From a virus (lineage: Duplodnaviria; Heunggongvirae; Uroviricota; Caudoviricetes): a stretch of DNA of 7,183 nt. Within the stretch, counting starts at the first letter, position 1; each line of letters begins with the position of its first letter. The DNA lies in IMG/VR virus record IMGVR_UViG_2706794673_000003. One strand, given 5' to 3'. Positions 458-967 of the stretch are shown here, piece after piece. The position numbers and the translations under genes are program-made. The notes under the pieces were generated by a model, which saw only the letters and a list, made by a program, of their open reading frames with translations, had not been told where the DNA came from and searched no databases.

Positions 458-967
458 TTAGCTAAAAAAAGGCAACACGAAGCTAAAACTACCAACATAA
501 AGTGCTGACCAGCTAGCAGCTGAAATCAGACTCACTGTATACACTTTCACTGGATGAAGTTGCAACATTCCTGCCACCAAAGGAGCAATATAACGCAGCA
601 CGGCGATAAAGCGCGAAGTGAAAAGTATTGACACAGAGTTATTTTGCAACTGAAGGCGAACCCGTTCTATTGTATTGGAACGGCTTGATATTATACATGC
701 AAGTTGAGGGATATGCCCAATTATTATACCAAGATGGTAATTAACGATAGTACCGCACCATGCGCCACTCATGACCGTGATTCCAGCTTCCCATGGTGAA
801 AGAGTCGTCTTGCTGACTGTAATTACAGTGGCCATCATAATTGATGCTGGTGGCAATATCGCCGAAATGAGTAAAGTGGATTTTGTGAACGCTATTATAA
901 AAAGAAGCCCCCATAGGCGATATGGATGAAGTACAAAATAGTTCATCAAAGCATTTATCCACTCCAT
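458..967 (-). CDS. DedA-family (SNARE-associated/TVP38-like) inner membrane protein, short divergent form; prophage cargo (moron) gene
   Basis: Minus-strand ORF with stop TAA at 458-460. ATG at 965-967 is preferred over the TTG at 968-970 used by the ORF track; AGGA lies about 11 nt upstream. The product is highly hydrophobic and carries DedA signatures: ILPPASIMM (cf. LPGDSLL), GTIVNYHLGIIIG (GxxxVNYxxG) and SRFIAVLRYIAPLVAGM (cf. RFIAFVRTLLPTIAG of YqjA). The gene is on the opposite strand to the flanking phage genes and looks lower in GC by eye. Confidence 0.65.
   Translation of the reverse strand: MEWINALMNYFVLHPYRLWGLLFIIAFTKSTLLISAILPPASIMMATVITVSKTTLSPWEAGITVMSGAWCGTIVNYHLGIIIGHIPQLACIISSRSNTIERVRLQLQNNSVSILFTSRFIAVLRYIAPLVAGMLQLHPVKVYTVSLISAASWSALYVGSFSFVLPFFS

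Follow-up and report, generated by a model that had tools for sequence, protein, structure and literature searches.

Bacterial DedA proteins are divided into three branches, COG0586, COG0398 and COG1238 (Todor, Herrera & Gross 2023, PMC10127716). COG0586 carries acidic residues at re-entrant helix 1 and arginines at re-entrant helix 2, and includes the flippases of undecaprenyl phosphate (UndP). COG0398, with scramblase-like proteins, has no acidic residues and misses one or both arginines, and in COG1238 the acidic residues are present and the arginines are not (PMC10127716). Among the members of the family are flippases for UndP and for phospholipids, proteins that determine colistin resistance, and relatives of TMEM41B and VMP1. 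Glu39 and Asp51 of Escherichia coli YqjA are treated as essential proton-binding residues. These two residues of YqjA are thought to bind protons, and Arg130 and Arg136 the lipid phosphate (PMC10127716; bioRxiv 10.64898/2026.09.20.752871); on the strength of earlier phenotypic work, double substitution of either pair (E39A/D51A or R130A/R136A) is regarded as giving a non-functional protein (bioRxiv 10.64898/2026.09.20.752871). Here we describe a DedA-family gene on the minus strand of a 7,183-nucleotide stretch of viral DNA (Caudoviricetes; IMG/VR record IMGVR_UViG_2706794673_000003), which we call the window. It represents the late region of an E. coli/Shigella prophage of lambdoid type, and its DedA protein has Lys at the position of Glu39.

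The prophage protein was compared with YqjA of E. coli K-12, taken from NC_000913.3 (L084:7774-8436). BLASTP aligns the N-terminal halves without gaps, and FIIAFTKSTLLISAILPPASIMM pairs with FVILFLENGLLPAAFLPGDSLLV. This places K30 at E39, P41 at G50 and A42 at D51. Further on, SRFIAVLRY pairs with GRFIAFVRT of YqjA, so that R120 corresponds to R130 and R126 to R136. All residue numbers used here count from TTG970, the annotated start codon; the true numbers are one lower. A hidden Markov model (HMM) alignment of 169 DedA-domain proteins gives an identical register and puts Lys and Ala of the prophage protein, not Glu or Asp, at the canonical positions. An earlier sequence-only reading of the window, aligned by eye, had proposed Lys (881–883) in place of the invariant Glu, Ala (845–847) in place of the Asp of LPGDSLL, and retention of the two conserved arginines, and these assignments are borne out. 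It had also described a shorter C-terminus lacking the last transmembrane segment. This is found as well: beyond the aligned block there are 16 C-terminal residues in the prophage protein versus 56 in YqjA, and the YqjA hydrophobic segment 185–214 (Kyte-Doolittle peak 2.68) has no equivalent.

These departures are not equally unusual. Outside the subfamily described below, a survey covering the best 150 of 4657 profile hits has Glu at the Glu position in 126 proteins and Asp in one; in all 38 subfamily sequences of the HMM alignment it is Lys. The position of Asp51 is quite variable. In the nearest DedA domains outside the subfamily it is mostly Ala, Ser, Thr, Val or Ile, with Asp or Glu in only three, and E. 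coli YabI has Thr. The suggestion that conserved acidic residues are missing stands for the Glu, which is near-universal among the surveyed proteins outside the subfamily, and needs qualifying for the Asp, which is not invariant in the family. The Pfam VTT domain is complete, with residues 42–162 matching profile positions 3–121 of 123, and Glu-bearing canonical DedA proteins of 158–170 amino acids exist (P0061, P0078, P0083 and P0099). Because the Asp position is variable, the domain complete and short Glu-bearing proteins known, the exchange of Glu for Lys is the significant departure, and the missing Asp and the short length much less so. The real anomaly is the charge reversal from Glu to Lys together with the change from Gly to Pro in the LPG motif. 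The Lys pattern is not a matter of chance, as Lys stands in 38 of 38 aligned and 74 of 74 distinct subfamily sequences versus 126 Glu and one Asp elsewhere. We also considered a truncated protein and rejected it in view of the full VTT domain and of a length of 167–180 amino acids that is conserved across the subfamily.

The protein with Lys, Pro and Ala at these positions is intact and belongs to a small, conserved subfamily that is under purifying selection. A word-indexed search finds 19 relatives, all of 148–185 amino acids. A HMMER scan of 1.84 billion representatives gives 12 matches at E ≤ 1e-30, followed by a gap to E of about 1e-19. When a single genome is scanned for each GTDB species, there are 70 loci, and the carriers are Shigella/E. 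coli, Citrobacter, Kosakonia, some 30 species of Enterobacter, Lelliottia, Huaxiibacter, Entomohabitans, Morganella, Proteus myxofaciens and numerous Arsenophonus, among these complete genomes of 0.85–0.94 Mb. Through cluster look-ups the subfamily extends to Hafnia/Obesumbacterium, Serratia, Proteus hauseri, and the louse symbionts Candidatus Riesia pediculicola (575 kb) and Riesia sp. GBBU (529 kb). The gene is intact in obligate insect symbionts with genomes of 0.53–0.94 Mb. As far as seen, the subfamily is restricted to Enterobacterales. It is apparently undescribed; our literature search found no paper that deals with WP_011069285 (the RefSeq entry for the protein), with DedA genes as morons, or with the DedA proteins of Riesia or Arsenophonus.

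Residues K30, S31, S36, P40, P41, A42, G69, G73, G81, R126 and W154 are invariant in all 74 distinct full-length sequences, and the K-S-T…L-P-P-A-S signature spans a subfamily that diverges to about 35% identity. R120 is Arg in 72 of the 74 (97%) and Lys in the other two, which read SKF for SRF (P0024, and P0028 of Riesia sp. GBBU). Among these sequences no alignment column reaches 50% Asp plus Glu. The open reading frame (ORF) with KST…PPAS is intact in 82 of 83 loci, and the pairwise ratio of non-synonymous to synonymous substitution (dN/dS) is 0.10–0.38. The earlier suggestion of a decayed gene does not survive these observations. We regard it as extremely improbable that the window copy is a decaying or non-functional remnant. 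Some of the prophages that carry the gene are indeed defective (in L001, terL is interrupted by IS2 and the head-morphogenesis gene has an internal stop), and the window copy differs at four of 37 highly conserved columns: S37A, L46M, S74T, and Ser at column 96, where 96% of the subfamily have Lys or Arg. However, its ORF is intact and retains every signature residue, its alleles are identical in several genomes and at least 99% identical in the others, 14 IMG/VR contigs among them, and dN/dS is 0.245 between the two prophage-borne copies, the other one being in Citrobacter.

The match to Pfam PF09335 (VTT) scores 52.4 bits versus a gathering cut-off of 33.9. When the subfamily HMM is run on the E. 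coli paralogs, those of COG0586 score highest (YabI 63.8, DedA 63.5, YqjA 63.4, YghB 51.3 and YohD 45.8 bits), while YqaA of COG1238 reaches 13.0 bits and YdjX and YdjZ of COG0398 only 8.1 and −1.5 bits. By score, the protein belongs with the YqjA/DedA/YabI branch, COG0586. Of the two features of that branch, the acidic residues are replaced by Lys and Ala, while the arginine pair is kept, with R120 and R126 conserved at 97% and 100%. The equivalog cut-offs of NCBIfam are missed by a wide distance. The best match, to the YqjA/YghB model PRK10847/NF008102, scores 30.7 versus 236 bits, and the UptA models (NF052604/5) score 19.5 versus 250 and 16 versus 300 bits. The combination of no acids, Lys at the Glu position and both arginines kept falls outside the three described classes.

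With YqjA, YghB, DedA and YabI, the prophage protein shares a complete VTT/DedA domain and an arginine pair of the GRF…R type at re-entrant helix 2. It differs from YqjA in having Lys for Glu39, Pro for Gly50 and Ala for Asp51, in the lack of any conserved acid and in the loss of the C-terminal helix. The nearest Glu-bearing relatives are the DedA-PAP2(-LssY_C) fusions such as Pseudomonas aeruginosa PA4011, at E of 1e-19 to 1e-15. They have a similar DedA module of about 160 residues, in which the position of Asp51 is usually taken by Ser, Thr or Ala, not by Asp. However, the Glu and the Pro-Gly motif are retained in them, and they continue into C-terminal phosphatase domains, whereas the prophage protein stands alone and has Lys and Pro-Pro. 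Members of COG0398 (YdjX/YdjZ, PetA and the eukaryotic scramblases TMEM41B and VMP1) miss one or both helix-2 arginines. Because they lack one or both of these arginines and are barely detected by the subfamily HMM, the loss of acids in the Lys subfamily is independent of that in COG0398. In the GenBank phage collection there is no close homologue (best match 30% identity), and PHROGs gives only a weak match to a family of unknown function.

In the prophage of the window, the gene sits in a small mobile cassette, a moron. Nucleotide similarity to a Citrobacter youngae prophage and to the C. meridianamericanus chromosome ends at about 1042 and about 448. The G+C content of this cassette is 0.39–0.44, versus 0.51–0.56 in the flanking phage DNA. 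The subfamily is found in only two clearly phage settings, the E. coli/Shigella prophage of the window and the C. youngae prophage, which has a different holin/endolysin set and a lambda-type GpA terminase. Of 5426 complete E. coli genomes, 6 carry the former, as do 14 near-identical IMG/VR contigs and numerous drafts of Shigella flexneri. In both prophages the DedA gene comes directly behind the last of the lysis genes and runs opposite to the late genes. The nearest chromosomal relatives, in Citrobacter and Kosakonia, have 72–74% amino-acid identity. The cassette is a moron in that it is self-contained, has a foreign base composition, is polymorphic for presence and absence, and has homologues outside phages. 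The opposite strand and the co-conserved segment of about 70 bp upstream, with its Shine-Dalgarno-like motif, argue for a cassette that is probably autonomous.

In lambda, bor holds the same slot, on the opposite strand directly after Rz/Rz1, and serves in lysogenic conversion. The DedA cassette shares with bor-type morons the slot, the orientation relative to the late operon and the small unit of foreign composition. It differs in its product: bor encodes an unrelated lipoprotein, and here a polytopic inner-membrane DedA protein is predicted. Many morons in the post-lysis slot encode surface or exclusion proteins. A protein that blocks DNA entry of superinfecting phages, or that tunes holin-dependent lysis, would fit a position directly past the last lysis gene in two unrelated prophages. 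We consider such a phage-directed role quite improbable: the gene is on the strand opposite to the late operon, PADLOC gives no match, and the same protein is chromosomal in phage-free contexts and in obligate symbionts.

Several minor observations concern the cassette and its surroundings. A gene of the DinI family (L012:7584-7826, L018 and L100:4587-4829) is immediately upstream of the DedA variant in C. meridianamericanus and in an IMG/VR contig, L100. In this contig, the DinI/DedA pair borders on a Mu-like prophage (repressor, MuA, MuB) at its left end. The DinI neighbour may be left over from an earlier stage at which the cassette was carried by a phage. L100 itself was considered as a third phage context and rejected, as the pair lies just outside the prophage end and is probably chromosomal flank. 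A related cassette-free prophage (H11/L101) is too divergent to serve as the empty site. Between the cassette end at about 1042 and the start of terS at 1165 there is a strong plus-strand hairpin at 1053–1093 (ACTCCTGTGG…CGCAGGAGT; RNA fold −20.9 kcal/mol), which has no T-run and is thus not a classical terminator. An Rfam scan of positions 1–1400 returns nothing meaningful. The defective prophage of NZ_CP065615.1 (L001), with IS2 inside terL, has in addition IS1 upstream of the lysis genes. Despite these defects, its DedA gene is identical to the window copy. This prophage also holds a QueH-like epoxyqueuosine reductase, hokD and a cluster of four tRNAs (Ile, Arg, Thr and Gly).

Outside phages, the DedA variant is chromosomal in Enterobacter, Citrobacter (C. 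amalonaticus and C. meridianamericanus), Arsenophonus, Morganella, Serratia, Hafnia and Proteus. A gene of 333–338 amino acids with CBS and MgtE domains and no match to the MgtE N-domain adjoins it at 36 loci in two distant lineages (for example L005:6611-7612, minus strand, and L008:9034-10050, plus strand). The two genes diverge in Enterobacter, Lelliottia and Huaxiibacter and are arranged in tandem in the Arsenophonus nasoniae group. In an all-against-all ORF comparison, this is the only neighbour cluster that spans more than one lineage. Its recurrence in different orientations could point to a role in homeostasis of divalent cations (Mg2+) with an MgtE-type channel, instead of recycling of the lipid carrier. 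DedA mutants are rescued by Mg2+ or Ca2+, and XdfA affects Mg2+ uptake (PMC10846249, PMC10470534). We nevertheless find a Mg2+ role improbable. The two genes are not linked in Morganella, Citrobacter or Kosakonia, in the reduced Arsenophonus genomes or in either prophage, and cation binding needs the opposite of a Lys/Arg/Arg site that has no conserved acid.

The reduced genomes bear on the question of activity. In Arsenophonus CJ (AP026064.1, 853 kb), the DedA variant stands alone and intact in a gene-poor, eroded region. This symbiont keeps murA–G, mraY, mrcB, ftsI and dacA and has lost lipid A synthesis (bioRxiv 10.1101/2022.08.04.502717). Because the gene is kept in such tiny genomes, its retention argues for a self-sufficient and useful activity. 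To our preferred reading we give about even chances: the gene would encode a functional DedA protein derived from COG0586, with a purely cationic site for an anionic lipid, and would have been imported by the phage as a moron. The anionic head group, of UndP or of a phospholipid, would be handled at the site formed by the Lys and the two Arg. Proton coupling based on carboxylates would be impossible because Glu is replaced by Lys and no other carboxylate is conserved. The alignments support the view that the canonical acid-dependent mechanism could not run unchanged. Transport may be equilibrative, with the buried lysine as a tethered cation, or coupled, with the lysine as the protonatable group. 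E. coli/Shigella, natively without the subfamily, would have gained the moron of about 595 bp from a chromosomal gene like those of Citrobacter and Kosakonia. It would presumably be expressed in the lysogen, as a lysogenic-conversion gene that modifies the envelope, and may in this way benefit the host.

Several points weigh against this reading. Among Glu-bearing relatives the PA4011 type is the closest, and PA4011 itself is reported as probably not a UndP flippase, so the substrate may differ (PMC12893004). The E39A/D51A form of YqjA is non-functional, and the Lys variant could likewise have lost transport. Simple scans of the cassette found no convincing sigma-70 promoter or terminator. Structural support is limited as well. 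The best AlphaFold2 (AF2) model has a pLDDT score (predicted local distance difference test) of 72.5, the other four models are at 39–55, and confidence is lowest near the two re-entrant tips. A search of Protein Data Bank (PDB) sequences with the subfamily profile gives nothing at E ≤ 1, and there is no solved DedA structure from which to take the geometry. The helix breaks of the model at 32–41 and 111–118, where confidence is lowest, are compatible with two hairpin tips, and the helix order of this moderate-confidence model fits the two re-entrant hairpins plus transmembrane helices of a YqjA-type protein. A Foldseek comparison of the model with PDB and BFVD gives no match at E ≤ 0.001, with faint matches only to 'SNARE associated Golgi' proteins of giant viruses.

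A different explanation is that the protein does not transport at all and is a regulatory or 'poison' subunit, which hetero-oligomerises with YqjA, YghB or similar proteins. Its Lys would pair with E39/D51 of the partner, in the core of the dimer formed by the re-entrant hairpins, and modulate or block it. Most free-living carrier genomes presumably also hold canonical DedA paralogs. The Lys would be charge-complementary to the carboxylates of such a partner. YqjA is mainly dimeric, its interface has E39/D51 and R130/R136 at the centre, and there is strong crosslinking at F47 and L48, which correspond to I38 and L39 here (bioRxiv 10.64898/2026.09.20.752871). However, the prophage protein has no C-terminal helix, which in the favoured models forms part of the YqjA interface, purifying selection in symbiont genomes of 0.53–0.94 Mb is hard to reconcile with a mere inhibitor, and one would not expect a phage-specific weapon to be near-core on the chromosomes of about 30 species of Enterobacter. 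We hold a partner subunit to be unlikely. The sequence-only reading had suggested, more narrowly, a decoy or dominant-negative partner of host DedA proteins; such a device specific to the phage is likewise unlikely, as the same variant is an ordinary chromosomal gene and is kept in obligate symbionts.

A stronger form of the preferred reading, that of a functional protein with a cationic lipid site, is that the Lys variant is a fourth functional class of bacterial DedA. It would translocate UndP or phospholipid alone and free of carboxylates, and would be the sole or principal DedA in Riesia and reduced Arsenophonus. We put this forward as a doubtful proposal only. If true, the acidic pair would not be intrinsic to the DedA transport mechanism, and there would be a natural, phage-mobilised system for dissecting coupling in a structurally unsolved family. 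A natural clade under purifying selection, in which the Glu is always Lys and the phosphate-binding arginines are kept, is a ready-made comparison for studies of coupling. The window also has a temperate phage importing a DedA subtype otherwise missing from E. coli/Shigella, and the gene is a candidate for an envelope-modifying lysogenic-conversion gene in Shigella flexneri.

The features of the window are collected in Table 1. In full, the minus-strand ORF covers 458–970 (513 nucleotides, 170 amino acids counted from TTG970), and RefSeq WP_011069285.1, 'DedA family protein', is the same gene annotated from TTG970 as a protein of 170 residues. In the nucleotide alignment TTG970 is replaced by TTC in Kosakonia, while ATG967 is kept in the orthologues. 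Because the ATG is conserved and the TTG is not, the true start is ATG967, giving 169 residues. The Shine-Dalgarno-like AGGAAAG (974–980) is 6 nucleotides ahead of this codon.

Table 1. Coordinates of the DedA gene, its cassette and the adjoining phage genes in the window
Feature	Position	Strand	Remarks
DedA/VTT-domain coding sequence	458..967	-	169 amino acids from ATG967; stop codon 458-460; ORF list, Pfam PF09335, ATG conservation
Mobile cassette (moron)	448..1042	-	Sole stretch common to two otherwise unrelated prophages; ~595 bp
Co-travelling upstream segment, ~70 bp	971..1042	-	Carries AGGAAAG; promoter presumed here
Lys codon K30	881..883	-	YqjA Glu39; end of first arm, re-entrant helix 1
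Pro41-Ala42 codons, LPPAS motif	845..850	-	YqjA Gly50-Asp51 (LPGDS); A42 codon 845-847 (-) by codon arithmetic
SRFIAVLRY, re-entrant helix 2	593..613	-	Arg120 611-613, Arg126 593-595
Rz-like i-spanin gene, 3' part	58..369	+	PHROG phrog_13, E=1e-43; last lysis-cassette gene, adjoins moron
Rz1 o-spanin ORF, embedded in Rz-like gene	119-325	+	ORF list
Terminase small subunit	1165..1929	+	PHROG phrog_370, E=7.5e-95; first head-module gene past cassette

The gene order is the 3' part of the Rz-like spanin gene with the embedded Rz1, the minus-strand DedA ORF, and the genes for the small and large terminase subunits, a DUF1073 portal, a head-morphogenesis protein, a DUF2213 protein and a Gp24-like protein. 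The equivalent of the Rz-like gene is annotated as 'lysis protein' in the NZ_CP065615.1 prophage. The terL reading frame overlaps the 3' end of terS at 1772–1929, and the RefSeq start of terL corresponds to about position 1880 of the window, about 50 nucleotides ahead of the terS stop. The DUF1073 portal gene is interrupted by 261 N at 3632–3892, where ORFs translate as strings of X. The head-morphogenesis ORF (4562–5344) overlaps the end of the portal gene, which extends to 4710.

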